Part shown: piece after piece, positions 1-17,173 of the stretch
Position numbering within the stretch: the stretch's first letter is position 1
Layout of the letters: each line of letters starts with the position of its first letter
Assembly: GCA_964484575.1 (NCBI GenBank)
Contig: CAZAGP010000279.1
Coordinates: forward strand, 1 to 26,333
From: an uncultured Candidatus Bathyarchaeia archaeon
GTDB lineage: Archaea > Thermoproteota > Bathyarchaeia > 40CM-2-53-6
DNA length: 26,333 nucleotides
Direction: 5' to 3'
The notes under the pieces: model-generated
Told to the model about the DNA's origin: nothing
Seen by the model: the letters and a program-made list of their open reading frames with translations, nothing else
Databases searched by the model: none
Program-made: the position numbers and the translations under genes

Positions 1-113
1 TCCAATTGGTCACGAAGAACTTCGAGAAGCGTGTAAGCCGGTGGACATTTCACTTTAATCGATTGCCCGTTTAGCTGGAAACGTATGTCGTGCTCCACCC
101 GCACTGGACTCAC
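1..113 (-). CDS. 5' fragment of a (2Fe-2S)-binding small subunit, xanthine dehydrogenase / CoxS-CutS family; runs off the left edge
   Basis: Manual translation from GTG at 113: MSPVRVEHDIRFQLNGQSIKVKCPPAYTLLEVLRDQL, open to base 1. Fits the usual CoxS-type N-terminus (I.F.LNG...V.P...LL..LR..L), which is normally followed by LTGxKxGC. The cysteines lie outside the window. Confidence 0.7.
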   Translation of the reverse strand, partial: MSPVRVEHDIRFQLNGQSIKVKCPPAYTLLEVLRDQL

Positions 114-264
114 TTCCGTATTCTAGACCTAAGGATACGCAAATATGTGCCTCTTAACCGTTGACTGAATTCGATCAATCTCCGTCCGGGGATAAACTGA
201 ACTGACGTAACTTCGTTAATCTATTTCGAAAGGCTCTTTGCCATCGTCACATTCTGCTTATGTC

Positions 265-1293
265 ATGTCGCGTGTAGCTCTTTATCTACAGGATAAGCAC
301 CAAGTTCGTGAAGAGCTTGAGTTTGTCCAATATGCTGAGAAGAAGGGTTTCGAGGCAATTTGGCACGCCGAATCACGATTAGCACGAGACGCTATCACTC
401 CCCTAGCTGCAATGGCTGTGGTCACAGAAAGGATCAAACTGGGAACGGGTGTGATCAACAATTGGACAAGAAACGTTGGTCTATGCGCTGCCACTTTTCT
501 CACATTAGACGAGCTCTCCGGCGGCAGGGCTCTTTTAGGCTTAGGAGCCTGGTGGGACCCGCTTGCTTGGAAGGTTGGGATAGAGCGAAAGAAACCGATC
601 AGAGCCATGCGTGAGTACTGTACTGTCCTTCAACGTCTTTTCAGAATGGAAAATGTGAGCTTCGATGGTGAGTTCGTACGAGTGCGTGACATTCGACTCG
701 ACGTCGTATATGGGGATCCGCAATCTCCGCGGAAAATTCCAATTTACATCGGAGCCACCGGATGGGATATGATCGAACTTACTGGCGAGATTGCGGACGG
801 CCTCCTTCTAAATTACCTTGTATCGCCAGGGTACAATGAGAGAGCGCTGGACCACCTGAAAGCGGGTGCTATGAAAGGAGATCGAAATTGGCAAGAGATA
901 GATCGTCCACAACTCATCGTCTGTTCTCTCGACGAGGACGCAGACAAAGCATTAGATGACGCACGACCACTTGTTGCGCAATATCTTGGCCAGCAACCTC
1001 ATATAGCGAAAGCTAGTGGAGTCAAGGAGAGTTTGATCGAAGAGGTTAAATCTGCTCTGGGTGGTTGGCCTGCAAAGCCGGGTGGATTAAAGGAAGCTCA
1101 ACTTCTCATCGATGACAACCTGGTTAGACTCATAACTGCCAGTGGCACTGCAGATGATTGCCTGAAGAAAGTGGAGGAGTACAAGAATACTGGATGCACG
1201 TGCCCCATTCTGTATCCGCTGGGAGAAGACGTCCGGGCGATGATTGACGTATTCCAAGTTCAACATCAGCAACCTGGTCCGTTGGTTGCTTAA
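265..1293 (+). CDS. LLM-class (luciferase-like) oxidoreductase, Mer-like, probably F420-dependent
   Basis: [56 protein letters not shown] motifs. ATG at 265 preferred over TTG at 238. Confidence 0.85.
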
Positions 1294-1323
1294 TCTGACT
1301 GATGCGGCACGACTTCATGTATG

Positions 1324-2172
1324 CTAGCCGCTTTCCCAAAGTGATCTGAAATACTCTCTTGACCTGACGGCATCCTTATACGACGTGAAAACCTCAAAAG
1401 TAATGGTCATGTCGTAGCCAATTTCCTTAAGCCATCTGACAACCTTCTTGAAGTCTATAATACCAGAACCGAGCGGCAAATGCTCGTCTAGTTCTCCGTG
1501 ATTATCGTGTATGTGGATATGTCTCAGTCGAGGAGAAAACCGTTTCAGATAAGCCTCGATTCTACTCATACCACCTTCAATGAACGCATGTGCGATATCC
1601 AGGTGGCAATTCAGGTCAGACACACTCTCCATGACGTGTGAATAATTTGCCAAGCCACCTGTTCCGTAGTCTCCAACGGGGACGTTCTCCAACATCAACC
1701 CAATACGCCTTGATTTGCCATACCTACAAAGTTCATTCATTGCGGTCGAAAAATTGTCAAGGAAAATGTCTCGAGACTCTTTGGTATCACCAACGCGGCC
1801 GAGCTTTCCGTAGAAGTGAAAATTGAGCAGCTCAAGTTTAAGCTGTGAGGCAGTTCGGATCATGGTTCTTGCTTCATCTATCCAGCCTCTCCGCGCCCTT
1901 ACGTGGGATGAACCAAACTGGACCCAGTATGCCGTATGGCCGATTGCAAACATTTCATTAGCGGACAGTAATTCCAATATTCGTTTTCGCTGGTGCGTCA
2001 AGATCGAAGGAGTAGCACTCGGTTCTTCTATTCCTATTTCCGCAAAATCGAAACCCAGCCTTTTGAATCGGATGATCTCGTCGGGCACTGGTAGAATTGG
2101 GTCCGTTAACATTCCGAACTTAGGAATCGGAATATCTGAGTTCAATGCTGGTTGATGGAGATGGAACTTCAC
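1324..2172 (-). CDS. Sugar-phosphate isomerase/epimerase family protein (xylose-isomerase-like / AP-endonuclease-2 TIM barrel)
   Basis: Metal-ligand pattern LENV, HLDIAHA, HIHIHDN..DEHLPLGSG, TFEVF. The true start may be TTG at 2145. Confidence 0.8.
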   Translation of the reverse strand: MKFHLHQPALNSDIPIPKFGMLTDPILPVPDEIIRFKRLGFDFAEIGIEEPSATPSILTHQRKRILELLSANEMFAIGHTAYWVQFGSSHVRARRGWIDEARTMIRTASQLKLELLNFHFYGKLGRVGDTKESRDIFLDNFSTAMNELCRYGKSRRIGLMLENVPVGDYGTGGLANYSHVMESVSDLNCHLDIAHAFIEGGMSRIEAYLKRFSPRLRHIHIHDNHGELDEHLPLGSGIIDFKKVVRWLKEIGYDMTITFEVFTSYKDAVRSREYFRSLWESG

Positions 2173-2359
2173 GAGGCACCCGGCTTATGTGAAACTTTCT
2201 ATCAAGCCTTATCACGGTCGAGCACAGAAACAGTTTACCGCCACAAAAACGAGCTCTGAAGCTTCATAGGTACAACACCGAGTGGGCAGAAAGTCGAATC
2301 AACGCAAAAATGCGTACGGACATTGGGCCGTATTGGGCCTTCGGCTAAGTTTAACTACG

Positions 2360-2375
2360 TATGGGGCACCCAATA
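2360..2375. promoter_or_regulatory. Imperfect palindromic operator copy 1 (TATGGGG-CA-CCCAATA)
   Basis: One mismatch to TATTGGG-NN-CCCAATA; sits between the TATA-like TTTAAC and the padR start. Confidence 0.6.
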
Positions 2376-2388
2376 TGTTGCGAGAACA

Positions 2389-2712
2389 TTGCGGGATGAA
2401 AGTGAGCATTTATGCTGCGACATGCGTGGAATGCTCTCGTTTCTGCTACTCTGGCTATTATGCAAACGACCCATGTACGGCCAAGAATTAGCTGAAGAAA
2501 TTGCAAAACGTAGAGGCGACAAGCCCAATCCGGGAACGATCTATCCGGCTCTGAAGGAGTTGCACAAGCGTGGATTGGTTCAAATGCGCAGTGAAGGGCG
2601 CAAGACGATCTATGAGTTAACGAGTGAAGGACAGAATGGTGTGATGGAGGCGTCAATTTACTTCTGTAGAGTATTCGGAGAAGTCTTCCGTTCTCCAGCA
2701 CAACAAGATTAA
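2389..2712 (+). CDS. PadR-family transcriptional regulator with an N-terminal Cys-Cys
   Basis: RGMLSFLLLWLL..PMYGQEL...PNPGTIYPALKEL...GLV.....RKTIYELT is the PadR wHTH signature. In-frame TTG at 2389 lies about 35 nt after TTTAAC. Confidence 0.9.
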   Translation: MRDESEHLCCDMRGMLSFLLLWLLCKRPMYGQELAEEIAKRRGDKPNPGTIYPALKELHKRGLVQMRSEGRKTIYELTSEGQNGVMEASIYFCRVFGEVFRSPAQQD

Positions 2713-2716
2713 CCAT

Positions 2717-2732
2717 TATTGGGTGTCCGATA
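2717..2732. promoter_or_regulatory. Imperfect palindromic operator copy 2 (TATTGGG-TG-TCCGATA)
   Basis: Two mismatches to the consensus; immediately upstream of the AT-rich TATA stretch before the wHTH gene. Confidence 0.6.
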
Positions 2733-2753
2733 TATTTATTAATCAATCATGAA

Positions 2754-2769
2754 TATTGGGTGTCCAAGT
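2754..2769. promoter_or_regulatory. Imperfect palindromic operator copy 3 (TATTGGG-TG-TCCAAGT)
   Basis: Shares an identical 12-mer (TATTGGGTGTCC) with copy 2; lies between the TATA stretch and the likely start at 2776/2779. Confidence 0.55.
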
Positions 2770-2775
2770 TTAAGA

Positions 2776-3375
2776 TTGGTGAAAATCTTGCCTGAAGGGG
2801 ATGAACTAGATCTACGGCGAGGCGACTGGCAGGTACTCGACGCGTTTCATGATGCCGAATCGAGTCTTGCATTTCAAGGCCTCAAACGCCGGCTGGGAAT
2901 GCACCAAGAAACCCTGTCCCGTGCCCTCCAACGTTTAGCGGATGACAACCTGGTCGAACGTACCGAGGATGGGTATCGGCTTACTCAGCATGGTTCAGAG
3001 ATCACTCACATACCGGCACGGGGACACTCTACGAAAGGCACTAGTCTCCTTGAGACATATCTTCCGTCAGATGTGCCAGCAACCGATGTGATTTCGAGAT
3101 TGAAATATTCTTGGTTCAGCAGACTTCGCTGGCTGGGTTATTCGAACAATGAGAATGAAACGTTACTCACCTGGGTTACAGATGACGGTAACACTCAAGT
3201 GCGAGCCCGATTCAAGAACAATCATCTGTCGATTGAAATCGACACTGAAGATGGAGAAAACTCCAACATCGCAATCAAATCGGCTCATGAATTAGCGGCT
3301 CGCATAATTCGTGAGTATCAAAATGTACAGAATACTCGAACAGCACAAACGGTACACACGACGCAGAGCTCCTGA
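2776..3375 (+). CDS. Winged-helix DNA-binding protein with an uncharacterised C-terminal domain
   Basis: FQGLKRRLGMHQETLSRALQRL....LVER..DGYRLT is a wHTH. TTG 2776 or GTG 2779 preferred because the ATG 2749 extension contains the operator repeat. Confidence 0.75.
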   Translation: MVKILPEGDELDLRRGDWQVLDAFHDAESSLAFQGLKRRLGMHQETLSRALQRLADDNLVERTEDGYRLTQHGSEITHIPARGHSTKGTSLLETYLPSDVPATDVISRLKYSWFSRLRWLGYSNNENETLLTWVTDDGNTQVRARFKNNHLSIEIDTEDGENSNIAIKSAHELAARIIREYQNVQNTRTAQTVHTTQSS

Positions 3376-3473: not shown

Positions 3474-5270
3474 TTACTGGATGATTGGATCGACGAACTT
3501 GAAATTGACCGTGTCCAGCATCCCCTTATCTGTTATTCGCAATTTTGGAATGACTGAGAGCGTTGTCATAGCTAAATTCATGTACGGGGATGGAAGCGTG
3601 CAGCCCAACGTGACCCAAGCGTCTCTTAATAGGTCCACTTCCTGAACCACTGATTCGACAGGTTGGTCGGACATAATCCCTGCGATTGGTAGCGGAACGG
3701 TAGCAAGCACCTTTCCTTTGCGAGCAACTACCATCCCTCCTCCGCTCTTAATGACCTCGTTAGCAGCGATTAGCATCTCTTCTTCAGATGCACCCGCGAC
3801 GACCAGATTGTGACTATCATGTGCCACGGTTGAAGCTACTGCTCCTTCTCTTATCCCAAATCCTTTCACAAACCCGATCGATTTGTTGCCTGTGCCCTTG
3901 TGTCTTTCGAATACTGCAATCTTCAACACATCTTCGTCCACGTTAGCGTATACTCGACCATCTTTCGATGGGGCTTCCGCTTCCAAATTATCTGTGTAGG
4001 CGCTGGCCGGGATTATTCCGATAGCTCTCACCCTCACCGTTCGCTGGGATGTTTTCGATTTTATCGTGAAGTCATCCAGGGTGGGAGATGACTTGAGCAC
4101 GATCGACTTGCGAGTGAATTCGGGAAGTTTCGGAGAAGTAATGTTTGCTATCAGCTTCCCACCCTGCGAAACCACCTGTCCATTAGCAATCACCGTTCCA
4201 ATCCTCACGGTTGACAACCTGTCGAGAATTATCATGTCAGCAAGCCTAGCAGGTGCTATGCTTCCTAGATTTCTGGAGCATTCATAGTGTTCTGCTACGT
4301 TAATCGTTGCCATCTGGATCGCTCGAATCGGGTCAACGCCCTCTTCGATTGCTCGTCGCACAACGTGATCGACATGTCCATCAGTGATAATCGAATGTGG
4401 TTCCCTGTCATCCGTGACTAGGCAAATGTGCCTCGAGTCTAACTTTTCTTCTGTAATCGCGCGCACTGTATCAGCAACATCGCGCCACGCGGAGCTTTCT
4501 CGTAGCATAACGTACATTCCTAACCGAAGTTTTTGCACTGCTTCAATCTTCTTAGTAGATTCATGGCATGAAGTTATCCCGCTAGCAACGTACGCAACCA
4601 GGTCTCGGTCCAGAAGATTGACCGCGTGTCCTTCCACCACGCGGCCAGCTTTCAGAGTTGCGGCAAGTTCCCCGTGAACTTGTGGATCACTTGAGATTAC
4701 GCCAGGATAATTCATTATCTCACCGAGCGCGACCACTCCATTCCATTTTAACGCCTCTTCAACTTCCGCGGTGGTTATGCTTCCGCCTGTTGTCTCAAAA
4801 CCTGGAGCGGCAGGAACACATGAAGGGAAGGTTATTAGGACCTTCAACGGCAAATTTCGCGATTCATCTAGGAAGAATCGCACGCCACTCAAGCCTAACA
4901 CGTTGGCGATCTCATGGGGGTCTGCGAAAACGGTAGTTGAACCATGAGGGAGAACTGCTCTAGCTAATTCTGTGGCCGTAACCATCGCGCTTTCAATGTG
5001 CATGTGCCCGTCAATGAATCCTGGAACAAGATATCTACCCGCCGCCTCGATCACTTGTGTCGTCGGCCCGATAGTATGCTCAGCATGCCCAATGAAAGCG
5101 ATTCGATCCTTCTTTACTGCTACATCTTGCTCTTCAATGATTTCTCCAGAATTTACGTTAACTAATGAAACGTTCCGCACAACCAGGTCAGCCTTCAATT
5201 TGCCCGTCGCGGTGTCCACAAGCGTGCGGGTCATCTCGTGCAGGCGCGTTCTACCCTCAAACTCGAACAA
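3474..5270 (-). CDS. ade: Adenine deaminase
   Basis: 598 aa; GFIDGHMHIES (HxH), DPHEIANV, EGHA, CHE, VTDD and the C-terminal GA.ASTVAHDSHN...LPLPIAGIMS domain typical of AdeC. Confidence 0.92.
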   Translation of the reverse strand: MFEFEGRTRLHEMTRTLVDTATGKLKADLVVRNVSLVNVNSGEIIEEQDVAVKKDRIAFIGHAEHTIGPTTQVIEAAGRYLVPGFIDGHMHIESAMVTATELARAVLPHGSTTVFADPHEIANVLGLSGVRFFLDESRNLPLKVLITFPSCVPAAPGFETTGGSITTAEVEEALKWNGVVALGEIMNYPGVISSDPQVHGELAATLKAGRVVEGHAVNLLDRDLVAYVASGITSCHESTKKIEAVQKLRLGMYVMLRESSAWRDVADTVRAITEEKLDSRHICLVTDDREPHSIITDGHVDHVVRRAIEEGVDPIRAIQMATINVAEHYECSRNLGSIAPARLADMIILDRLSTVRIGTVIANGQVVSQGGKLIANITSPKLPEFTRKSIVLKSSPTLDDFTIKSKTSQRTVRVRAIGIIPASAYTDNLEAEAPSKDGRVYANVDEDVLKIAVFERHKGTGNKSIGFVKGFGIREGAVASTVAHDSHNLVVAGASEEEMLIAANEVIKSGGGMVVARKGKVLATVPLPIAGIMSDQPVESVVQEVDLLRDAWVTLGCTLPSPYMNLAMTTLSVIPKLRITDKGMLDTVNFKFVDPIIQ

Positions 5271-5402
5271 GGTAAACCCGCAATTATAACGTCTTGAAGA
5301 TTTAAGAAAGCCCTTGTTGCGGTTGACGCTAGATCATTAGTTTTCAAGCTCTACGTACTAGTGAGGCATTGAGCTCGAATGTAGTGATGGTTCTACAGCA
5401 TG

Positions 5403-5436
5403 TATTATAAAACGCGTAGGGTGCAGCTTTACGCGT
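5403..5436 (+). promoter_or_regulatory. TATA box (TATTATAAAA) followed by an inverted repeat ACGCGTA-N11-TACGCGT
   Basis: TATA at 5403-5412, about 35-40 nt before GTG 5446; 7-bp arms at 5412-5418 and 5430-5436. Confidence 0.5.
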
Positions 5437-5445
5437 GATCAGGAC

Positions 5446-6837
5446 GTGAGCTCATTACTGGTGACCGGTGGAACTCTAATTACGATGGATACTCACAGGC
5501 GCATAATCACCGATGGCGGTATCCTGATTGAAGGCTCCCGAATATCGAAAATAGGCAAATCATCTGAAGTGAAACGTGAGTCGAGCGCGGAATTTGAAAT
5601 CGATGCCAAAGGAATGGTAATTCTGCCAGGGCTCATTGATGTTCACGTGCACCTCGCGCAAGCCATGTTGCGAGGATGCGCAGATGATACTTCACTGATC
5701 GATTGGCTCCAGAAGTTCGTTTGGCCTCTGCAAGGGAATTACGATGAACATGATGGCAAGGCAAGCGCCGAACTCTGCATGCTTGAAATGATCAAGTCTG
5801 GTACGACCACCTTCTTGGAAACGCATGTGCACAGACGCTACGGGTTCGACGGAATTGCGAAAAGCGTAGAGAGCAGTGGAATGCGCGGCATCCTAGCTAA
5901 GACAGTGATGAGCCTTCCTAGCTATGGTAGCCAGCAGAACATCATGCACCCAGGCATGATCGAAGACGGTGAGACATGCCTAAGGGAGGTTGAGGAGTAC
6001 TTCAAGAGATGGAATGGGAAGGCTGATGGTCGAATCAAAGTCTGGTACGGAGCAAGGTCACTGGGAGGGTGTACACCTGAACTCTATAGGAAGATAGCAG
6101 AGGGCGCAAAACGATTAGGAACAGGAGTAACGATGCATTTGGACGAAGTGCCCCAGGATGCAGAATATACTCGAAGAGAATTCAATAAATTGCCCGCGGA
6201 ATTTATGGACGAAGTGGGACTTACTGGTCCAAACGTTGTGTATGCTCATGGAGTTTGGTTGACTGAACCGGAATGGAAGATTCTGGCTGAGAAAGGAGCA
6301 ACAGTCGCTCACTGTCCGTCTTCTAACATGAAATTGGCTTCTGGAATCGCAAAGGTTCCTGAGATGATTAAGAGTGGGGTTAACGTGGGATTAGGATGTG
6401 ACGGGGGCCCTAGCAATAATTCATACGACATGATTCGTGAGATGAAGTTGGCCTCACTCGCTCAGAAAGCAAGATTACTCAACCCGCTTGTAATGGACGC
6501 TGAGACAGTTCTCGAACTAGCTACCATCAACGGAGCTAGGGCATTAGGGGTGGATAAGGAAATCGGCTCGTTAGAAGTTGCAAAGAAAGCCGATCTAACG
6601 CTCGTATCGTTACGGCAACCCCACCTAGTTCCAGCACACAATCCGGTCTCCCATTTGGTGTACGCCGCATCAGGATCAGACGTTGACACGGTCATAATTG
6701 ATGGACGAATTATAATGAAGAATCGTCAAGTGCTGACTCTCGATGAAGAGAAGATTATTCAAGAAGCTAACGAGCGTGGAACAAGGCTCTTGGCGAGAGC
6801 TGGAGTCACGATTAAACCCAAATGGGGATACGTTTGA
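5446..6837 (+). CDS. Metal-dependent amidohydrolase (MtaD / SsnA / guanine-deaminase-like superfamily)
   Basis: LPGLIDVHVH (HxH), MHLDE (HxxE), AHGVW, HCPSSNMKL, GLGCDG, GKKAD-like KKADL. Substrate cannot be assigned from motifs. Confidence 0.85.
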   Translation: MSSLLVTGGTLITMDTHRRIITDGGILIEGSRISKIGKSSEVKRESSAEFEIDAKGMVILPGLIDVHVHLAQAMLRGCADDTSLIDWLQKFVWPLQGNYDEHDGKASAELCMLEMIKSGTTTFLETHVHRRYGFDGIAKSVESSGMRGILAKTVMSLPSYGSQQNIMHPGMIEDGETCLREVEEYFKRWNGKADGRIKVWYGARSLGGCTPELYRKIAEGAKRLGTGVTMHLDEVPQDAEYTRREFNKLPAEFMDEVGLTGPNVVYAHGVWLTEPEWKILAEKGATVAHCPSSNMKLASGIAKVPEMIKSGVNVGLGCDGGPSNNSYDMIREMKLASLAQKARLLNPLVMDAETVLELATINGARALGVDKEIGSLEVAKKADLTLVSLRQPHLVPAHNPVSHLVYAASGSDVDTVIIDGRIIMKNRQVLTLDEEKIIQEANERGTRLLARAGVTIKPKWGYV

Positions 6838-6927: not shown

Positions 6928-7953
6928 CTAAGTGCGCTTTCCACTCATTGTAAGCGCTAGTACCGCCATCTTCGTGTACATTCCGTTCTCCGCCTGAGGG
7001 TAGATGACCGAGTGTCGTCCATCCAGCACTTCATCTGTAGCCTCTTCACCTCGCAGAACTGGCAGCACGTGAGTAACTATCGCTCGCTTACTCATCTTAT
7101 CAAGTAAATCCTGCGTGAGAGTCCAGTTTCGGTACTTCTCATGGATCTCCAGCTCTCGGTCCTTGCCGAACCTGCTTGCTCCTATTGAAAGAAGTTCATT
7201 CGTAGCCCAGTTTCTAGGAAAAACCGCGTTGGCTCCATCCAAAGCGGATTCGAGATCGTTAGTCACTGTGAATTCTGCTCCCTGGGCCAGGGCATTCGAC
7301 CTTGATGCATCAATTATTTTGGGGTCTAATTCGAATCCAGGGGGATGAGCCAGTACCACGTCCATACCGAAACGTGACATTATCAGTGCCTCTTCGTTAA
7401 TGCTGCAACGACCTCGAAAGCTCTTCGCGTATCCCCACATGATCACGTATTTCTTCCCTTTCACCTTGCTAAGGGCTTCTTCAGTCGTCATTAAATCAGC
7501 AAGGCCCTGTGTAGGGTGATACGTGCAGCATGCCATGTTAATTACCGGAATCTCAGCATGTTTCGCATACTCTCGGATGGTGGAGACTCCTACTCCAGAT
7601 ACGTAGTCGATTGCGGAGTCTAGGATTCGTACGCCCAAACCATGCCCATACTTCTCGTACATCTTAGCCACATCTCTGGCAGCCTCCCCAGAACCTAAAC
7701 GCGTAGTGGAAACGTCAATATACTGAGCATGTCCACCAAGATACGTCATTCCCGCTTCAAACGCTGCCCGTGTCCTAGTCGACGGAGCGTAGAAGAGCAT
7801 GAAGAATGTTTTAGCATTGAGTACGGGGAGGACTCTGCCGCGGTGATACTGTCGTTTCATCTCCTTGGCAGTCTTTAGGGTTGCTACAAGCTCATCAATC
7901 GACCAGTCTTGTGTGGTTATTAGGTCGCGCCCGCCCAAATCTACTTTAACCAA
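6928..7953 (-). CDS. Carbamoyltransferase-fold protein 1 (OTCase/ATCase superfamily, YgeW-like, non-canonical)
   Basis: STRT, HPTQ and HVLP motifs. TTG at 7953 follows GAAGGTGGG (SD-like), giving 341 aa; the track's extension to 8286 overlaps carbamate kinase. Confidence 0.88.
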   Translation of the reverse strand: MVKVDLGGRDLITTQDWSIDELVATLKTAKEMKRQYHRGRVLPVLNAKTFFMLFYAPSTRTRAAFEAGMTYLGGHAQYIDVSTTRLGSGEAARDVAKMYEKYGHGLGVRILDSAIDYVSGVGVSTIREYAKHAEIPVINMACCTYHPTQGLADLMTTEEALSKVKGKKYVIMWGYAKSFRGRCSINEEALIMSRFGMDVVLAHPPGFELDPKIIDASRSNALAQGAEFTVTNDLESALDGANAVFPRNWATNELLSIGASRFGKDRELEIHEKYRNWTLTQDLLDKMSKRAIVTHVLPVLRGEEATDEVLDGRHSVIYPQAENGMYTKMAVLALTMSGKRT

Positions 7954-8082: not shown

Positions 8083-9045
8083 GTGAGAGTATTGCCCGAT
8101 TCGTTGATCGTCATAGCACTTGGCGGGAACGCCCTTCTGCAAAGAGGACAGAAAGGAACCGTTGAGGAACAATATGAAAACATGAGGAGGACCGTTCCGA
8201 AGATAGCTGACCTGATCCAGAGAGGTTACAAAGTGGTTCTGACGCATGGGAACGGGCCGCAGGTTGGAGCAACCCTCCTTCGTCACGAGGCTGCTAAAGC
8301 TATCGTACCGCCATTCCCGCTAGATGCCTGCGGAGCAGAAACGCAAGGCTTCATCGGGTATATGATTCAGCAAGTATTGAGGAATGAGCTTAAGGCACGA
8401 GAAATTGAAAAATTCGTCGTAACGGTAGTCACACGCGTAATTGTCGATAAACACGATTTGGCCTTTCAGAATCCGACGAAGCCAATCGGACCATTCTATT
8501 CAAAGGATGAAGCGACTAAATTGAAGGAACAGAAACCCGATCTGGTGATTAAGGAAGATGCGGGTCGAGGCTACAGGCGAGTCGTACCTTCTCCTGATCC
8601 CAAGATAATTGCAGAGCGGACAGCTATACGTGCCCTCGTCGACGCCGGATTCGTTGTTATTGCTTGCGGAGGAGGAGGCATTCCCATAATCGAAGAGGAA
8701 ACCCAGACAGTGGGAGTGGAGGCAGTGATTGACAAGGACCTCGCGGCTCAGCGCTTAAGTACCCTGATCGGGGCACAAATCCTGATAATCCTCACCGACG
8801 TGGACGGGGCGTACATGAACTACGGAACCTCAAAACAAGAAATAATCAGACAAATCACTTCTGGAAAATTGAAAAACCATCTGAAAGAAGGACAGTTCAA
8901 GGAAGGCAGTATGGCACCAAAGGTTGAAGCTGCAATTCGATTCGTGGAGAGCGGTGGCGAACGCGCAGTTATTGCTGATCTCGGAAGTCTAGTTGAAGCT
9001 CTCGAAGGAAAAGCAGGGACGCAGATCACAGTGCCAAAAGCTTAA
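8083..9045 (+). CDS. arcC: Carbamate kinase
   Basis: ALGGNAL, THGNGPQVG, KPIGPF, EDAGRGYRRVVPSP, GGGGIP, EAVIDKD, GSMAPKVEAA. Alternative start TTG 8092. Confidence 0.95.
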   Translation: MRVLPDSLIVIALGGNALLQRGQKGTVEEQYENMRRTVPKIADLIQRGYKVVLTHGNGPQVGATLLRHEAAKAIVPPFPLDACGAETQGFIGYMIQQVLRNELKAREIEKFVVTVVTRVIVDKHDLAFQNPTKPIGPFYSKDEATKLKEQKPDLVIKEDAGRGYRRVVPSPDPKIIAERTAIRALVDAGFVVIACGGGGIPIIEEETQTVGVEAVIDKDLAAQRLSTLIGAQILIILTDVDGAYMNYGTSKQEIIRQITSGKLKNHLKEGQFKEGSMAPKVEAAIRFVESGGERAVIADLGSLVEALEGKAGTQITVPKA

Positions 9046-9083
9046 TTTAATCACAACTAATTCAGCGAAGGGTGGTAATTGAA

Positions 9084-10154
9084 ATGCCGTCATTCGTTGG
9101 TTTCTGGAAAGGCAAAGACTTTCTTGATACGAATGATTTTTCTCAGGAAGAGATCAAGAAGGTTCTTGATGCAGCCGACATTCTGAGAAAGAATTTCAGA
9201 TCACGTAAGAAACACCAGTATCTTTCCGGTCAAACACTCTTCATGCTTTTCTATAATCGATCACTCAGAACCAGAAACTCTTTCGAAGGAGGAATGTACC
9301 AGTTAGGAGGACATGCACACTTCCTCAGCCCTCAAGACGTCTATACTCCTGCCCTACCCGAAGACATGGTCGCCTATCAGACTGAAGCGATTTCGGACGT
9401 AGCGAGAGTCCTAAGTCGATACGGTGACGCAATAGCGATCAGAATCTATGGTGATGCAGCGAAATGGGTGATCGGACGAGGTCACAAGGTAGTTCAGGAA
9501 TTCGCAATAAACGCTACAATTCCTGTGCTTAACATGGAAGACGACATGTACCATCCGTTCCAGGCATTAGCCGACGTCCAGGCAATGCGGGCTGCTATTC
9601 CTAAACTCGCTGGGAAGAAACTTGTAGTTTCCTATGCTTACTCTGGCGGACTGAAGCCATTAGCTGTACCGCAAAGCGAAGTTCTCATCGGAACTCAAAT
9701 GGGAATGGAAGTTGTGCTCGCCCACCCACCCGGATTTGAACTAGAAGAGGTAGTGCTGAAAGCTGCCAAAGCGAACGCGGACAGATATGGTGGAGATTTC
9801 AAAATCGTAACTGACATGAAAGAAGCATTTGACGGAGCGGACGTGGTGTATCCTAAAGCGTGGTCACCAAAGAACTACTTTCCACCGCACAGAGCCGAAC
9901 TAGACAAGCAAGGCGCGATGTCGCACCAAGACAAGTACAAGAGCTGGATTTGCACTCAAGAGATGATGGATCTCACAAACAAGGGAAAATACATGCATTG
10001 CGGACCCGCAGACAGAGGCCAAGAAGTTACAGATGACGTGATCGACAACATGAACTATTCACTGTACTTCGAAGAAGCCGAAGATCGTCTCCACGTGCAG
10101 AAGGCGATTATGGCGATGGTGATGGGCGGTCGTCCCTCTCGTCGTCGGAAATGA
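9084..10154 (+). CDS. Carbamoyltransferase-fold protein 2 (AOTCase/SOTCase/YgeW-like, non-canonical)
   Basis: SLRT, HPFQ, YPKAW, MHCGP and EAEDRLH motifs. ATG 9084 follows AGGGTGG (SD-like). Confidence 0.88.
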   Translation: MPSFVGFWKGKDFLDTNDFSQEEIKKVLDAADILRKNFRSRKKHQYLSGQTLFMLFYNRSLRTRNSFEGGMYQLGGHAHFLSPQDVYTPALPEDMVAYQTEAISDVARVLSRYGDAIAIRIYGDAAKWVIGRGHKVVQEFAINATIPVLNMEDDMYHPFQALADVQAMRAAIPKLAGKKLVVSYAYSGGLKPLAVPQSEVLIGTQMGMEVVLAHPPGFELEEVVLKAAKANADRYGGDFKIVTDMKEAFDGADVVYPKAWSPKNYFPPHRAELDKQGAMSHQDKYKSWICTQEMMDLTNKGKYMHCGPADRGQEVTDDVIDNMNYSLYFEEAEDRLHVQKAIMAMVMGGRPSRRRK

Positions 10155-11814: not shown

Positions 11815-12111
11815 CCGACATCAGTCTGAACGAGAGTTATCTTCCGATTTTGATGTTTCTTCGTCGAAACAAGCAACAATCGACGTATAGAACCTATAAT
11901 TATACAATCTTCTATCAAAGTTAGTGAACACTCATCATTCGAGAATCATCACATCTTTCATAGACGATGATGGCAAAGTTAATCGACAGGCATCTCGTCA
12001 CCAACTTACGAAACGTTAAGGCTAGTGATACCCTATCCGATAGAATTCAATCTAGAATCAAGTTTCGCTCGAAAGTGTCTTTTACCTAACTGCACTCATA
12101 GTGAACGGCTT

Positions 12112-14121
12112 GTGAGGTTTACGCTACCACATAGAATTACCTACGATCTAATGCCCGTCCTAACGCCTTTGATAATGTACACGGTATTGTCAGGCTTCAC
12201 AGCCATTTTCATATATGGAGTGTACCGTCGTCTTAGAATATACTTTCGAGGAGTTACCGATTTTCAAACAAACGAATTAGGCTCGCGAGTCAAAAGAGTA
12301 TTAGCGAATGTGCTTGCTCAACGTAAAGTTGTGAGGAAACACTATCCAGGTTTGATGCACTCGCTTATCTACGTCGGGTTCCTAGTTCTCTTAATCGGAA
12401 CTTTACTTGTTTTCCTAGACTACGACATTTGGATGACTCTCTTTCACGAGCAAATCCTAGTAGGCAACTTCTATCTGGTCTACGAGACGTCGCTCGATGC
12501 TTTTGGGTTAGTTGCGATCACAGGCCTTGTATTTGCGATATTTCGCCGCTCTGTAACGAAACCATCAAACTTGCCCAGTTCAAAGGATGACCTGTTCATC
12601 TTCTCAATCCTTCTCGTAATACTCTTTACAGGATACATAATGGAAGGCATTCGGCTAGCCGTAGATAATCCACCTTGGGCCAAATGGTCATTCGTAGGAT
12701 ACCGCGTGGCACTTCTTCTTAACGCCTCCTACGGTAAACAAGTCGCTAATTTCTACCCAGCGCTTTGGTGGTTCCATGCTGTCTTGGCATTCACAGCTGT
12801 TGCAGCTATCCCATATACAAAACTGTTTCATTTGGTAACGTCACCATTAAACGCATTATTTGCTGATCAACGACCGATCGGACAGCTGAGCACACCCTTT
12901 AACCTACGGGAAGTTCTAGCGTCCGGCAACTTTGACGTTAAAATGGGCGCCGCTGCTATTAGTGAATTTTCCTGGCGAGAAAGACTATCTTTCGACTCCT
13001 GCACTACCTGCGGCAGGTGTAGCAATGTCTGCCCTGCAACCGCCGCAGGAACCCCACTGTCACCTATGTACTTGATACTCAAACTCCGAAATGTAATGCT
13101 AACAGAAAAAGAAACGGGTACGTCGCTAATAGGACGAATCATCAACCAAGAGGAGTTATGGGCGTGTACCACATGCAGGGCGTGCGTCCATGAATGTCCA
13201 GTGTTGATCGATCACATCGATGCGATCGTTGACATGAGACGTCATCTTGTAGGAGAAGGAAAACTGGATCGGCCCAAGAGAGATTTGCTTAATAATTTAA
13301 CCAACTCTACGAATCCATACGGACTTCCCTCAAATGATCGCCTTAACTGGACGAAAGACCTTGACGTCAAGACCGTAAGAGAACAACCTGAATTTGAACT
13401 CCTCTACTGGGTAGGCTGTTCTGGTTCATACGATCCCAGAAATCAAGCAGTATCTCGAGCATTGGTTAAGATACTGAACGCAGCTAAGGTGCGGTTCTCT
13501 GTTCTAGGAAATGAGGAGAAGTGCAATTGTGAAGTCGCAAGGCGTCTAGGCGAGGAGGGACGGTTCCAACAGGCAGCACTCGAACTAATTGAAGTGTTCG
13601 AAAAGTACAATGTTAAGAAAGTTCTCACCCAATGTCCCCACTGCTTCAACACTTTCAAGAATGAATATCCTGAATTCGGCGCGTCTTTTCAGGTAATCCA
13701 TCATACACAATTCATCGCCGAGCTCCTCGAGTCAAAGCGCCTGATACTAAGAAGAGGAGCCGAACAGGTCGCTACTTTTCATGATCCATGCTATCTCGGA
13801 AGATACAATTCCGTGTTTGAAGCTCCCAGATCGATACTCTCGTCAATGGCGCAAGTGACAATTCGAGAGATGCCTCGTCACGGTAAGGATAGTTTCTGCT
13901 GCGGAGCTGGCGGAGCGAATTTTTGGTATAAAGTGGACCAAAAAAGAAGGACCAACCTGATACGTTTCGAAGAAGCAGCAGAGACAGGGTCGAATATAAT
14001 TGTAACTGCGTGTCCCTTTTGCACATCAATGTTTGAGGACGCTGCTCTATCGTTCGAATCTACAAATTCAACTAGAGTGAAGGATATTGCCGAACTCGTA
14101 GCAGACTTAATCGATTCTTAA
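12112..14121 (+). CDS. Membrane-anchored Fe-S oxidoreductase with NarI-like TM domain, two [4Fe-4S] motifs and CCG domains (FadF / HdrF-like, heterodisulfide-reductase-related)
   Basis: Several N-terminal TM helices with His (MHSLI, WWFHAV, LFHLVT); CTTCGRCSNVCP and CTTCRACVHECP; WVGC, CPHC, HDPCYLGR, CCGAGG, ACPFC. Start uncertain (GTG 12112 or ATG 12151 preferred over 12025). Confidence 0.88.
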   Translation: MRFTLPHRITYDLMPVLTPLIMYTVLSGFTAIFIYGVYRRLRIYFRGVTDFQTNELGSRVKRVLANVLAQRKVVRKHYPGLMHSLIYVGFLVLLIGTLLVFLDYDIWMTLFHEQILVGNFYLVYETSLDAFGLVAITGLVFAIFRRSVTKPSNLPSSKDDLFIFSILLVILFTGYIMEGIRLAVDNPPWAKWSFVGYRVALLLNASYGKQVANFYPALWWFHAVLAFTAVAAIPYTKLFHLVTSPLNALFADQRPIGQLSTPFNLREVLASGNFDVKMGAAAISEFSWRERLSFDSCTTCGRCSNVCPATAAGTPLSPMYLILKLRNVMLTEKETGTSLIGRIINQEELWACTTCRACVHECPVLIDHIDAIVDMRRHLVGEGKLDRPKRDLLNNLTNSTNPYGLPSNDRLNWTKDLDVKTVREQPEFELLYWVGCSGSYDPRNQAVSRALVKILNAAKVRFSVLGNEEKCNCEVARRLGEEGRFQQAALELIEVFEKYNVKKVLTQCPHCFNTFKNEYPEFGASFQVIHHTQFIAELLESKRLILRRGAEQVATFHDPCYLGRYNSVFEAPRSILSSMAQVTIREMPRHGKDSFCCGAGGANFWYKVDQKRRTNLIRFEEAAETGSNIIVTACPFCTSMFEDAALSFESTNSTRVKDIAELVADLIDS

Positions 14122-14183
14122 TCGATTCATCTCAATTTTATTAGTTTGAACGAGTCTTTGGAGGTTTCGCTCGGCGGGGAATC

Positions 14184-14975
14184 GTGGTAAATATCATAGT
14201 GCTCGTTAAGCAAGTTCTACAAACTGCTGATCTCAAAATAGACAAAACAACCAAGGCCATAGTGACGCAGGGAGTTGCTCGAGTAATAAGTGAGACTGAT
14301 AAGAATGCACTGGAGGAATCGATTCGAATCAAGGAGAAAAACGGAGGGAAGATCACAGCAATAAGTATGGGTCCCGCTGAAGCAAGAGAAGCGCTGAGAG
14401 AGGCGCTAGCGATGGGGGCGGACGAAGCAATTCTCCTGACCGATCCACGATTTGAAGGATCAGATGCACACGCAGTCGCGAGTGTGCTAGCCGCAGCAGT
14501 CACAAAGATAGCGGACTACGATTTGATAATCTGTGGCGCGTATTCTGAAGACATGTTCGCGTTTCAAGTAGGACCAAGACTAGCAGAGGCGTGTAATTTG
14601 CCTCAGTTGACTTACGTAACCAAGATAGAATTGCAGGGCAGCCAGATAATCGTCGAGAGGGATTTGGAGAATGAACGCCAGGTCGTCGAAGGTAGACTGC
14701 CCTGCTTGGTAACGGTTGTGAGAGAAATCAACGAACCCAGACTCCCTACACTGATGGCAATTATGGCTTCATCGAAGAAGCCGACCTCTGTATGGTCGGC
14801 AGATGACCTACGACTTACGGAGAGCGAGTTGGGATACAACGGGTCTCTCGACGAATTGCTAAGAAGTACCGTTACCACGGGGGAAAGAAAACGTACAATC
14901 CTACAAGGAGAAGCAAAAGACGCAGTCTCCAAGCTTACTCGAGCTCTTCAACAGGAAGGTTTCTTGAGGGGTTAA
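14184..14975 (+). CDS. etfB: Electron transfer flavoprotein subunit beta
   Basis: IIVLVKQV, D.NALEE, LAMGADEAILL, QVGPRLAE, INEPRLP. Confidence 0.93.
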   Translation: MVNIIVLVKQVLQTADLKIDKTTKAIVTQGVARVISETDKNALEESIRIKEKNGGKITAISMGPAEAREALREALAMGADEAILLTDPRFEGSDAHAVASVLAAAVTKIADYDLIICGAYSEDMFAFQVGPRLAEACNLPQLTYVTKIELQGSQIIVERDLENERQVVEGRLPCLVTVVREINEPRLPTLMAIMASSKKPTSVWSADDLRLTESELGYNGSLDELLRSTVTTGERKRTILQGEAKDAVSKLTRALQQEGFLRG

Positions 14976-14978
14976 GGG

Positions 14979-15953
14979 GTGGCGCAAGAGAAACGCGACA
15001 TCTGGATTTTTTCAGATCACCTTCAACACGGATTCGAACTTCTAGGCAAGGGAAAGGAGCTTTCGGAGGAACTGAGCTCAGATCTCGTTGCGTTTGCAAC
15101 GACCTCTACCAGTGCTGACGAATACGTTAGACATGGTGCTGACAAAGTTGTTCTTGTAACTAATCCACTGTTACGAGAATTCCAGGTTGACACATACACT
15201 GACGCGTTGTCGGAGTTGGCGAATGAACATAAACCGGATGCAATCCTGATTGGAGCGACTAGAATTGGATTGGAACTTGCACCCCGCCTAGCAGAACGGT
15301 TGAAAACAGGTTGTGTGACTGAGGCTACACGAGTTGAGTTAGATGCAGACAAGAAATTCCTCCTTATGGACAGAGTCACTATGGGAGGCAACCTTATGGA
15401 AACGCACATTTCTCGGTCAAAGCCGCAAATTGCAACTGTGCCTAGGGGTGTCTTTGCCCAGAGAGCACCAGACCCGTCAAACAAGGGTCAAGTAATCATT
15501 GCTGAGCCGACGATCAAAGACCCCACTACGAAGCTCCTCGAAAGGAAGCCTAAGGAGGTAAAGGGAGTAAAATTGTCAGAGGCTACAATAATCGTGTCCT
15601 TCGGTCGAGGAGTCCGAAAGAAAGAGGATATGATGATGATAGAGGACTTTGCGAAAGCCCTTGGCGCTGTAGTGGGATGTTCTCGTCCAGTTGCCGAAGA
15701 CCTCGGATGGTTGCCTGAAGAGCAATACATTGGACTGTCAGGCCAGAAGGTCAATCCGAAATTATACTTCGCTTGCGGAATTTCAGGTCAAATTCAGCAT
15801 CTTACAGGAATAAGAAACAGCAAAATTATTGTATCAATTAATAATGACCCAAAGGCTCCGATTTTTGAGTTCAGCGACTATGGCATCGTTGGCGACCTCT
15901 ATGTGATATTGCCCCTCCTAACCGAAAACATCCGTCAACTGGCCAGAAGTTAA
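14979..15953 (+). CDS. etfA: Electron transfer flavoprotein subunit alpha
   Basis: HGADKV, APRLAERL, L.EATIIVS.GRG, GCSRPV, PKLYFACGISG.IQHL.G, IN.DP.APIF..DYGIVGDL. Confidence 0.93.
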   Translation: MAQEKRDIWIFSDHLQHGFELLGKGKELSEELSSDLVAFATTSTSADEYVRHGADKVVLVTNPLLREFQVDTYTDALSELANEHKPDAILIGATRIGLELAPRLAERLKTGCVTEATRVELDADKKFLLMDRVTMGGNLMETHISRSKPQIATVPRGVFAQRAPDPSNKGQVIIAEPTIKDPTTKLLERKPKEVKGVKLSEATIIVSFGRGVRKKEDMMMIEDFAKALGAVVGCSRPVAEDLGWLPEEQYIGLSGQKVNPKLYFACGISGQIQHLTGIRNSKIIVSINNDPKAPIFEFSDYGIVGDLYVILPLLTENIRQLARS

Positions 15954-17173
15954 TCCTTACCAACAAACGAGGGCATCGAGAGAACAGCAGCTGAAAGAAG
16001 AGTAATAAAGAGCCTGGGATCCCGTGCAAGAGATAACAAGATCTTCCCCTGAAAATCGATGTCCGCTGCTCTTCCCAAGATTTCATCGTTTCTTAACTCC
16101 TTCGCCATAGTGAAGATTCTACTAAGCTGCCTATCTGGCATCCCATACATGAGGCGCCTTAGCAAACTCATCGCTTTCAAATCGAAACCAAATAGACGCC
16201 TCCAAGAATCTTCATAACTCTTCAGGAATGAGGACGACATATCATCACGCAGTATAGCGTTGGCTGCGGTTTGTCCCGCAAGTTTTCCGCAGGCCAGCCC
16301 AAATACTATACCTCCGCCCGTTGTTGGCTTGACTTGAGAAGCAGCGTCACCAACTGCTAAAACAGCGTCCGAGTAGGTCTGGCCAACCGCACCATTCACT
16401 GGAATAGGATGAAAGCTAGGTCTCGTAACATACTTTGCGTTTCTAAGTTTTGACGACACTATTGGATGCTTCTTCAGAAACCTTTCAAGGCATAGTTGTA
16501 CATTGGACCCAACAGCAGCCCCCAAACCAACCTTCGCAGAACCATCCTTTCGAGGAATAATCCAACCAAAAAATCCTGGGGCAAATTCTTGGCCAAAATA
16601 CAATTCGACAAGATCTGTATCAATATCTGTGACATGTTCGACGTGAATTTGGGCTGAGTTAACGAATTTCCGAACGTCATGTTGAAAGGCACCGACTTGC
16701 CTCGAAACCGGGGCTCCACACCCTCCCGCATCGATCACCATCTTGCAAGAAATTTCACTACGAGAAGTCTTTAGTTTGATCAAATTACCAGATCGCTTGA
16801 TAGTGTCTACTCTGGAATCTAGACGGAGGACTACTCCCTTCTGCACCGCAAGAGAAGCGAGATACTTGTCGAACTTTGCTCTGTTAATCACCCAGGTAAT
16901 TGGAGTTGGCCGACGTAGGACTAAACGTTCCCCATTTGGGGAACTTATTATTGCACCTTTAATCTCATTTTCCACAAAATCCTTAGAAAACTGAGGACTA
17001 TATCGCTTGAAAAATTCTATTCCGACATGACCTGAACAGTGAGATGGAAAACCAATCTCTGAATGCTCTTCGAAGACCGCGACGGAAACTCCCCTTTCTG
17101 CGGCCGCAATTGCTGATGACGCACCGCTGACGCCACAACCTACAATGGCTAGGTCGACTAATTGTGTTAACAA
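15950..17173 (-). CDS. Geranylgeranyl reductase family FAD-dependent oxidoreductase (digeranylgeranylglycerophospholipid reductase-like)
   Basis: IVGCGVSG (GxGxxG), INRAKFD..L, APGFFGWIIP (PxxxxWxxP), VGDAA.QVKPTTGGGI. Confidence 0.8.
   Translation of the reverse strand: MLTQLVDLAIVGCGVSGASSAIAAAERGVSVAVFEEHSEIGFPSHCSGHVGIEFFKRYSPQFSKDFVENEIKGAIISSPNGERLVLRRPTPITWVINRAKFDKYLASLAVQKGVVLRLDSRVDTIKRSGNLIKLKTSRSEISCKMVIDAGGCGAPVSRQVGAFQHDVRKFVNSAQIHVEHVTDIDTDLVELYFGQEFAPGFFGWIIPRKDGSAKVGLGAAVGSNVQLCLERFLKKHPIVSSKLRNAKYVTRPSFHPIPVNGAVGQTYSDAVLAVGDAASQVKPTTGGGIVFGLACGKLAGQTAANAILRDDMSSSFLKSYEDSWRRLFGFDLKAMSLLRRLMYGMPDRQLSRIFTMAKELRNDEILGRAADIDFQGKILLSLARDPRLFITLLSAAVLSMPSFVGKD

Follow-up and report, generated by a model that had tools for sequence, protein, structure and literature searches.

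A candidate F420H2-dependent 2,8-dioxopurine reductase of the luciferase-like fold, encoded in a purine-gene island of an uncultured Bathyarchaeia archaeon

What reaction might be catalysed by P0001, a luciferase-like monooxygenase (LLM)-fold protein whose gene lies beside a xanthine dehydrogenase (XDH)-family gene at one end of contig CAZAGP010000279.1 (C279) of an uncultured Bathyarchaeia archaeon? The window, meaning the whole stretch of DNA that was analysed, is this entire contig of 26,333 nucleotides. It belongs to an archaeal metagenome-assembled genome (MAG; here G000) of 315 contigs and 1.72 Mb that is 80% complete and whose nearest relatives, in a homologue search with P0001, are Bathyarchaeia MAGs. 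The gene is a single open frame:

265..1293, + strand: P0001, LLM-fold F420-type oxidoreductase, 342 amino acids; Pfam Bac_luciferase (PF00296), E 9.7e-65

The ATG at 265, rather than the upstream TTG at 238, was taken as the start because homologues align from residue 1–3. Judged from its sequence, P0001 is most likely a candidate F420H2-dependent 2,8-dioxopurine reductase. A first-pass annotation, made from the DNA letters, had described an LLM-fold protein with the motifs GVINNWTR and LGAWWDPLA and had compared the former with GVTNPYTR of Mer, the reductase that acts on methylene-tetrahydromethanopterin (methylene-H4MPT). Both points proved sound: the frame is intact, the motifs occupy residues 62–69 and 93–101, and true Bathyarchaeia Mers read GVTNPYTR at the position of the first. 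Neither motif is due to chance, because their core residues are invariant in 40 aligned family members from at least eight phyla.

The family to which P0001 belongs is both tight and widespread. Close relatives in metagenomes number in the hundreds (120 clusters at ≥77% identity), and relatives at 59–63% identity were found in genome collections from haloarchaea (Haloarcula japonica, H. salina), Caldarchaeales, Actinomycetota, Chloroflexota, Acidobacteriota (Blastocatellia) and a few MAGs of other phyla. Identity between archaeal and bacterial members is ∼60%, and P0001 is 59–91% identical to 39 LLMs from gene clusters that contain the amidohydrolase SsnA or XDH. The mean column identity of the 40-member alignment was 73%, with invariant Y7, Q9, D10, H12, G62, V63, W67–N70, W96, W97, P99, A101, N183, Y184, LGQQPHI (241–247) and W268–A270; the resulting signature is LYLQDxH, GxGV(I/V)NxWTRN, G(A/V)WW(D/E)PLA, LNYLV and LGQQPHI. 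By identity, signature and membership of one clade, P0001 is orthologous to the LLMs of SsnA/XDH clusters. In an AlphaFold (AF2) model of P0001 (pLDDT 89.8), the invariant residues sit just after β-strands 1, 3, 4 and 6, i.e. on the catalytic face of the barrel according to the DSSP string of the model. Only 1 of 101 sampled Bathyarchaeia genomes, G000 itself, carries the family, a rarity that fits an accessory catabolic trait and not a core C1 enzyme.

To place the family in its genomic context, 80 loci were fetched and all of their open reading frames (ORFs) were best-hit searched with the proteins of the E. coli ygeW–xdhD cluster, the window and other G000 contigs; the remaining conserved neighbour clusters were annotated with Pfam. 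Features were counted within 10 kb of the LLM gene, and 43 loci had at least 7 kb on each side. Some purine-pathway gene was present in 42 of these 43 fully flanked loci: an SsnA-group amidohydrolase in 34, an XDH subunit in 33, a carbamoyltransferase in 22, carbamate kinase in 15, adenine deaminase in 14 and a HyuA-like hydantoinase in 9. In 45 of the 80 loci an SsnA-type gene or XDH subunit lay within 300 bp of the LLM gene, and adenine deaminase was found near the LLM in 15 of the 80. With CTase for carbamoyltransferase, CK for carbamate kinase, Ade for adenine deaminase, FeS for the iron–sulphur subunit and XDH-L for the large subunit, typical gene orders were:

Actinomycetota: CTase, XDH-L, SsnA, LLM, XDH-FAD, XDH-FeS, XDH-L, CTase, CK
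Chloroflexota: SsnA, LLM, XDH-FAD, XDH-L
Caldarchaeales: Ade, LLM, SsnA-like, FeS, XDH-L, CTase, CK
Haloarchaea: YgeY, CK, CTase, LLM, HyuA, SsnA-like

These orders mirror E. coli ygfK–ssnA–ygfM–xdhD, with the LLM gene in the place of ygfK. The amidohydrolases adjoining the LLM best match SsnA, and the Chloroflexota one exceeds the SsnA cut-off (518 vs 444 bits). The panel search of all ORFs found a YgfK-like or PreA/PreT-like (UacX-type) ORF in 0 of the 80 loci, and the LLM is the only conserved oxidoreductase in them besides XDH.

Other genes recur in these neighbourhoods. A threonine-synthase-like pyridoxal phosphate enzyme (TIGR00260, above cut-off) is conserved near the LLM in 21 loci (e.g. 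L058:3-1394), and 17 loci have a further, weak PALP cluster (e.g. L050:920-2413), while a true YgeX occurs in one locus; the diaminopropionate end of the pathway may fall to the ThrC-like enzyme. PnrA/Bmp-type ABC transporter genes were seen in ∼10 loci, and a UacY-like Amidohydro_3 gene in 9.

The bacterial reductive urate route was demonstrated in two 2025 studies (Li et al., PMC12507026; Liu et al.). In that route XdhD/DOPDH reduces urate to 2,8-dioxopurine, whose ring is then dearomatised by YgfK at the expense of NAD(P)H. In their E. coli assays, Li et al. (PMC12507026) detected no product when YgfK acted alone and saw turnover only with SsnA, for which they suggested an unfavourable equilibrium as the reason; YgfK with NADPH alone converted 2,8-dioxopurine to the next intermediate in the hands of Liu et al. 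Later steps use HyuA, YgeW (phosphorolytic, yielding carbamoyl phosphate), YgeY, YgeX and the carbamate kinase YqeA. Just two reductions are needed, one by the XDH-type enzyme and one by YgfK (PMC12507026). Since the family loci keep XDH and lack YgfK and UacX, and since the LLM is their sole other conserved oxidoreductase, we infer that the LLM is the 2,8-dioxopurine reductase.

In the proposed scheme, the neighbouring XDH-type enzyme would make 2,8-dioxopurine (yanthine) from urate, and in the second reductive step the pyrimidine ring of this compound would receive a hydride straight from F420H2 bound on the C-terminal face of the P0001 barrel. An SsnA-type amidohydrolase would hydrolyse the dihydro product, pulling the reduction forward; a hydantoinase would act next, YgeW-like carbamoyltransferases would split off ureido groups with phosphate, and carbamate kinase would form ATP from the carbamoyl phosphate. 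The LLM would thus take the place that YgfK, a flavo-Fe-S enzyme dependent on NAD(P)H, has in E. coli and UacX has in clostridia. F420 and NAD(P)H have similar redox potentials. Trp96–Trp97, Tyr7, Gln9 and Asp10 would replace the pterin contacts of Mer and could plausibly stack on and protonate the purine; these roles, like the substrate and the direction of the reaction, are predictions. We consider it highly probable that P0001 is an F420-type reductase of a purine-degradation pathway and, given the sequence data, probable that it is the F420H2-dependent reductase of 2,8-dioxopurine. The first-pass annotation had suggested that this LLM supplies the reductive purine step with F420, and the neighbourhoods, the absence of YgfK and the genetic link to F420 all lend this weight. 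Its belief that F420 had yet to be proposed for purine catabolism is out of date, as Li et al. suggested it for Chloroflexota in 2025.

The distribution of the family in whole genomes follows that of SsnA. Among 151 Chloroflexota genomes, 23 had both the LLM family and SsnA, 2 the LLM family only, 9 SsnA only and 117 neither. Of the 9 genomes that had SsnA without the LLM, 2 encoded full-length YgfK; of 9 tested genomes that had both, none did. Outside Chloroflexota, YgfK above cut-off was found in 0 of 5 family-bearing genomes, G000 included. The LLM family and YgfK are complementary in distribution. The two Chloroflexota genomes with full-length YgfK (G107 and G120; loci L112 and L111; 906 and 994 bits, cut-off 835) have SsnA and lack the LLM, so the published statement that Chloroflexota lack YgfK is not valid phylum-wide.

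Several results point to F420 as the cofactor. The top 14 NCBIfam matches of P0001 are all F420-class LLM models, and Mer, Fgd1/2 and Adf are the solved structures closest to it in both sequence and fold. Foldseek ranked jMer with F420 first for the P0001 model (TM 0.86), followed by Fgd1, Adf and Fgd2, with flavin mononucleotide (FMN) monooxygenases lower. In agreement with an F420-type assignment, which the first-pass annotation had also favoured, cofC, cofD, cofE, an FbiB-type nitroreductase domain or fno lies within 10 kb of the LLM gene in 14 of the 80 loci, mostly in Chloroflexota. A check of G000 for cofactor genes found cofC and cofD (adjacent) and two cofE above cut-off, together with two FrhB-like genes. 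cofE was above cut-off in all five other family-bearing genomes (Caldilineaceae, Acidimicrobiales, Haloarcula, Blastocatellia and Verrucomicrobiota); among 14 control genomes the cofE profile matched only the three F420 producers. P0001 looks like an F420-class LLM oxidoreductase and is predicted to bind F420.

Around P0001, the window holds a purine island with the following features:

1..113, − strand: 2Fe-2S small subunit (CoxS/XdhC-type) of an XDH-family molybdenum hydroxylase, first 37 codons, read by translation; truncated by the contig end
114..264, no strand: intergenic region between the divergent XDH operon and LLM gene, read from sequence
1324..2172, − strand: xylose-isomerase-like TIM-barrel protein, convergent with the LLM gene; PF01261 at 5.8e-31
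2323..3375, + strand: PadR-type and MarR/winged helix-turn-helix (wHTH)-type regulators, inside the island; Pfam
3474..5270, − strand: adenine deaminase; TIGR01178, 561 bits vs cut-off 472.5
5446..6837, + strand: amidohydrolase of the TRZ/ATZ-DadD-GuaD-SsnA group; best NCBIfam match 5′-deoxyadenosine deaminase, 436 bits (cut-off 522)
6928..7953, − strand: carbamoyltransferase 1, YgeW-like, start approximate; Pfam OTCace_N and OTCace, 29% identity to E. coli YgeW
8083..9045, + strand: carbamate kinase; TIGR00746, 430 bits vs cut-off 358, 47% identity to E. coli YqeA
9072..10154, + strand: carbamoyltransferase 2, YgeW/AOTCase-like; Pfam/NCBIfam, 32% identity to E. coli YgeW

The neighbouring XDH-family gene named by the first-pass annotation was confirmed: an XDH 2Fe-2S subunit does adjoin the LLM gene, but only 37 codons of it are in the window and the remainder is on contig C309. 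Positions 3739–3986 of C309 overlap window positions 1–248 at 97.2% identity (7 mismatches, no gaps), and we read the left break of C279 as a product of co-assembled strain variants, not the true end of the locus. The minus strand of C309 holds a complete XDH operon encoding the 2Fe-2S subunit, the FAD subunit, a small ThiS-like ORF and the molybdenum subunit. When the two contigs are joined, the LLM gene and the XDH-type operon are divergently transcribed, a layout that recurs in the close relatives L001–L003. The small ORF, between the FAD and molybdenum subunits on C309 (L109; 2245–2484, minus strand), encodes a ThiS/MoaD-like protein of 79 amino acids (PF02597, E 3e-7).

Conservation differs among the other genes of the island. 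The TIM-barrel gene and the PadR/MarR-type regulators are kept only in the closest relatives, L001 and L002. The amidohydrolase scores 222–228 bits against SsnA models and by score is not an SsnA orthologue; its type sits between XDH subunits in Actinomycetota loci. In carbamoyltransferase 1, the OTCace_N/OTCace domains start at residue 120 of the longest ORF. The sequence TATTGGGTG(T/C)CC occurs in three copies (2364–2375, 2717–2728 and 2754–2765) that flank padR and the wHTH gene; there are 4 matches in the window vs 1.2 expected, and none in the XDH–LLM intergenic region. That region (114..264) also holds no copy of the padR-region operator TATTGGGTGTCC, giving no support for a shared regulon. 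Further along the window (12025–17173) is a separate electron-transfer module of a membrane HdrD-like protein (NarI-like domain, 4Fe-4S, two CCG domains), EtfB, EtfA and a divergent geranylgeranyl-reductase-like flavoprotein, which nothing seen in relatives tied to the purine island.

Further pathway genes lie elsewhere in G000. On contig C232 (L108; 8863–12329) an SsnA-like gene (35% identity with SsnA of E. coli) and a HyuA-like gene are divergently arranged; then comes a MocA-like cytidylyltransferase, and a NUDIX/IF-2B gene adjoins this group. The same contig carries a C-terminal fragment of a DHO_dh-family protein (2–484; PyrD- or PreA-like) ∼440 bp upstream of a gene for an FrhB/FdhB-type F420-binding protein (927–2138), the two being separated by a minus-strand ORF (580–882); the fragment is ∼7–8 kb from the SsnA-like gene. 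Contig C130 (L107; 1–6558) has a second LLM of the family (334–1335, minus strand) that is 57% identical to P0001 and groups with Caldarchaeales. Its neighbours are the start of an amidohydrolase gene (1–328, minus strand), an amino-acid permease, a third YgeW-like carbamoyltransferase (5060–6085, minus strand) and another 2Fe-2S XDH subunit (6135–6557, minus strand) truncated by the contig end. A search with the E. coli cluster proteins found no YgfK in the G000 genome, and YgeY had a weak match only.

Might P0001 simply be its lineage's Mer, the methylene-H4MPT reductase of the archaeal Wood–Ljungdahl pathway? Mer models and Mer crystal structures are its best named matches, the Joint Genome Institute (JGI) labels many of its homologues Mer, and a Mer profile search found no true Mer in G000 or in the five sampled genomes of its taxonomic family. 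Yet P0001 scored 179.0 bits with TIGR03555 (cut-off 348.7) and 192.4 bits with NF002619 (cut-off 276), while the true Mers, present in 31 of the 101 sampled Bathyarchaeia genomes, reach 389–515 bits. We aligned P0001 with six true Bathyarchaeia Mers and jMer, using the residue roles of Gehl et al. 2024 (PMC11094777). In jMer, Glu6 at the end of β1 is catalytic, Asp96 and Phe233 contact the C1 carrier, and a Gly-Val non-prolyl cis-peptide after β3 lies under the F420 ring (PMC11094777). In P0001, Glu6 (FGIEFVP in the six true Mers) is replaced by Tyr7 (VALYLQD), Val8 by Gln9, Asp96 (GPGD) by Trp97 (GAWW) and Phe233 by Gln239. P0001 keeps the Gly-Val cis-peptide site (G62–V63, the cis state itself not being readable from sequence) and a carboxamide residue at the end of β6, a term used here because position 178 of jMer is Gln in PMC11094777 and Asn by PDB alignment count. 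By this alignment the LGAWWDPLA segment lies in the loop after β4, where Mer contacts pterin. In a quick maximum-likelihood tree of 122 LLMs (IQ-TREE, LG+G4), the six Mers formed their own clade near the base and P0001 fell in a distant 29-row clade (SH-aLRT 97) nested within a 52-row clade (support 100). The tree had no Adf, Fgd or RutA rows, and the distance of P0001 from Adf, Fgd and RutA-type enzymes rests on NCBIfam scores and Foldseek ranks, RutA itself not being aligned. The P0001 family is also common in Haloarcula, Caldilineaceae, Thermoleophilia and Blastocatellia, groups not known to have a methanogen-type H4MPT pathway, and it is far rarer in Bathyarchaeia than true Mer (1 vs 31 of 101). 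Grouping with true Mer, raised by the first-pass annotation, was not observed; identity with Mer is contradicted by these sequence tests, and we regard it as hardly credible. It is very improbable, too, that P0001 is an FMNH2-dependent LLM monooxygenase using O2 to open or hydroxylate the ring of a purine or pyrimidine, as RutA does. FMN monooxygenases share the LLM fold and many aerobes carry the family, but FMN-type models give P0001 at most 43 bits (best, alkanesulfonate monooxygenase SsuD, 42.6 bits vs cut-off 510) against 192 bits for F420 models. Its structural neighbours are F420 enzymes, cof/fno genes adjoin the family in the 14 loci above, no flavin reductase partner is among the conserved neighbours, and the host belongs to Bathyarchaeia, a group generally regarded as anaerobic.

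If P0001 is an F420-dependent oxidoreductase, it might still have no part in purine catabolism, its neighbourhood being the result of co-transfer or chance. LLM families are large and functionally varied, with at least 12 LLM paralogues in G000 alone, and in 13 of 58 loci with at least 1.5 kb on each side the first panel search matched neither SsnA nor XDH. After annotation, most of those 13 loci proved to carry an XDH FAD subunit, a UacY-like Amidohydro_3, adenine deaminase or F420 genes; the link to purine genes in 42 of 43 fully flanked loci spans Bathyarchaeia, Caldarchaeales, haloarchaea, Actinomycetota, Chloroflexota and Acidobacteriota, and genome-wide co-occurrence with SsnA is strong. 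The lack of any such link, which the first-pass annotation had named as fatal to its idea, was not what we found, and a role outside purine catabolism is improbable. A different substrate for the same family and cofactor is unlikely but deserves more weight: the C130 copy, which adjoins an SsnA-like gene, would be the 2,8-dioxopurine reductase, and the window copy would reduce another oxopurine or a ring-opened intermediate, for instance a product of the adenine deaminase/deaminase-type amidohydrolase branch, xanthine or 6,8-dioxopurine. The two paralogues belong to separate subclades (that of the window groups with Bathyarchaeia and that of C130 with Caldarchaeales), the window copy sits beside XDH, adenine deaminase and a deaminase-type amidohydrolase and not SsnA, and many Actinomycetota loci hold two XDH large subunits and two carbamoyltransferases. 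Both paralogues, however, keep Y7, Q9, D10, H12, W96, W97, N183, Y184 and LGQQPHI, which argues for the same chemistry on a very similar substrate, and the known pathway has one non-XDH reduction only.

Several points count against P0001 as the 2,8-dioxopurine reductase. The LLM gene in the window is not beside an SsnA orthologue: the amidohydrolase there scores as deaminase-type and the SsnA-like gene is on another contig. The paralogue on C130 does adjoin an amidohydrolase gene, and the task may be split between the two LLM copies. The DHO_dh fragment on C232 could be an ordinary PyrD or, linked to F420, a UacX-type ring reductase. G000 has no YgeX orthologue in the search with the E. coli cluster proteins, and neither cofG nor cofH, which encode Fo synthase, was found in this MAG, which is 80% complete. 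The association of the LLM family with SsnA in Chloroflexota has a Fisher p of 8e-18, a value uncorrected for relatedness that overstates the case. Finally, the family occurs in aerobes (Haloarcula, Caldilineaceae, Thermoleophilia), in which the reductive urate route has so far not been demonstrated.

Taken more broadly, and with the chances in our judgement evenly divided, an F420-driven reductive urate/2,8-dioxopurine pathway may be widespread in Archaea (Bathyarchaeia, Caldarchaeales and haloarchaea of soil, hot-spring and hypersaline habitats) and in Actinomycetota, Chloroflexota and Acidobacteriota, including aerobes. The LLM would be a new F420H2:2,8-dioxopurine oxidoreductase derived from a Mer-like barrel, its pterin pocket rebuilt as a Trp-Trp/Tyr purine pocket, and in G000 purines would yield ATP through the duplicated LLMs together with three phosphorolytic carbamoyltransferases. 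If so, a new reaction would join the short list of physiological F420 roles, and the route of purine fermentation worked out for gut bacteria in 2025 would reach Archaea. Dearomatisation of the purine ring, the least favourable step of the pathway, would have been solved at least three times by unrelated enzymes (YgfK, UacX and the LLM). A common Mer misannotation that inflates apparent Wood–Ljungdahl capacity in Bathyarchaeia and other MAGs would also be corrected. Being small, soluble and cofactor-simple, the family is a practical target for expression and assay and might serve engineered urate-degrading strains.

Compared with characterised LLM enzymes, P0001 shares the F420-type LLM fold of glucose-6-phosphate dehydrogenase (Fgd) and secondary-alcohol dehydrogenase (Adf) at TM 0.74–0.77, but is only 19–20% identical to them, scores 63 bits with the Fgd model (cut-off 420) and has unrelated genomic contexts. 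Mer (PDB 8QPL, 1Z69, 1EZW, 1F07) is the closest solved structure, with 29–31% identity over the Foldseek alignment at the TM of 0.86 given above. The two have in common the F420-type barrel, the Gly-Val site and the carboxamide residue, and in both F420H2 would pass its hydride straight to an N-heterocycle at a C=N-type centre, which for P0001 is a proposal. They differ in the four replaced C1-carrier residues, in score relative to the curated cut-offs, in clade, and in genomic context and taxonomic spread.

By proposed reaction and cluster position, the counterparts of the LLM are YgfK (DOPOR; E. coli, C. sporogenes) and the PydA-like UacX of C. difficile; E. coli ygfK–ssnA–ygfM–xdhD corresponds to ssnA–LLM–FAD–FeS–Mo subunits in Actinomycetota. 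Unlike these enzymes, the LLM has an unrelated fold without Fe-S clusters, bound flavin or a nicotinamide site, and its hydride would come from free F420H2. A homologue of YgfK (TIGR03315) was considered as an identity for P0001 and rejected on its unrelated fold and lack of a match; a functional analogue is all that is proposed.

The nearest precedent is the putative F420-dependent luciferase-family yanthine reductase that Li et al. (2025, Life Metab 4:loaf031, PMC12507026; bioRxiv 10.1101/2025.05.19.654654) noted in Chloroflexota SsnA neighbourhoods, so that the idea of an F420 purine reductase is not new here. Their protein shares with P0001 the PF00296 domain, SsnA and XDH as neighbours, and the proposed role, and the Chloroflexota members L043, L058 and L065 are 61–63% identical to P0001 and in the same clade (SH-aLRT 97). 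The published proposal is a one-sentence bioinformatic remark on bacteria, with no assay, family definition or archaea, and our literature search found no paper that assays such an LLM enzyme or mentions it in archaea. The present analysis adds archaeal membership, including Bathyarchaeia, together with the breadth of phyla, a family signature, explicit non-Mer status, linkage to cof/fno genes, a distribution complementary to YgfK and the duplicated LLM of G000. In contrast to the Chloroflexota system, P0001 is archaeal, lies apart from SsnA in its genome and is one of two paralogues there; its neighbours include a carbamate kinase and two phosphorolytic carbamoyltransferases.

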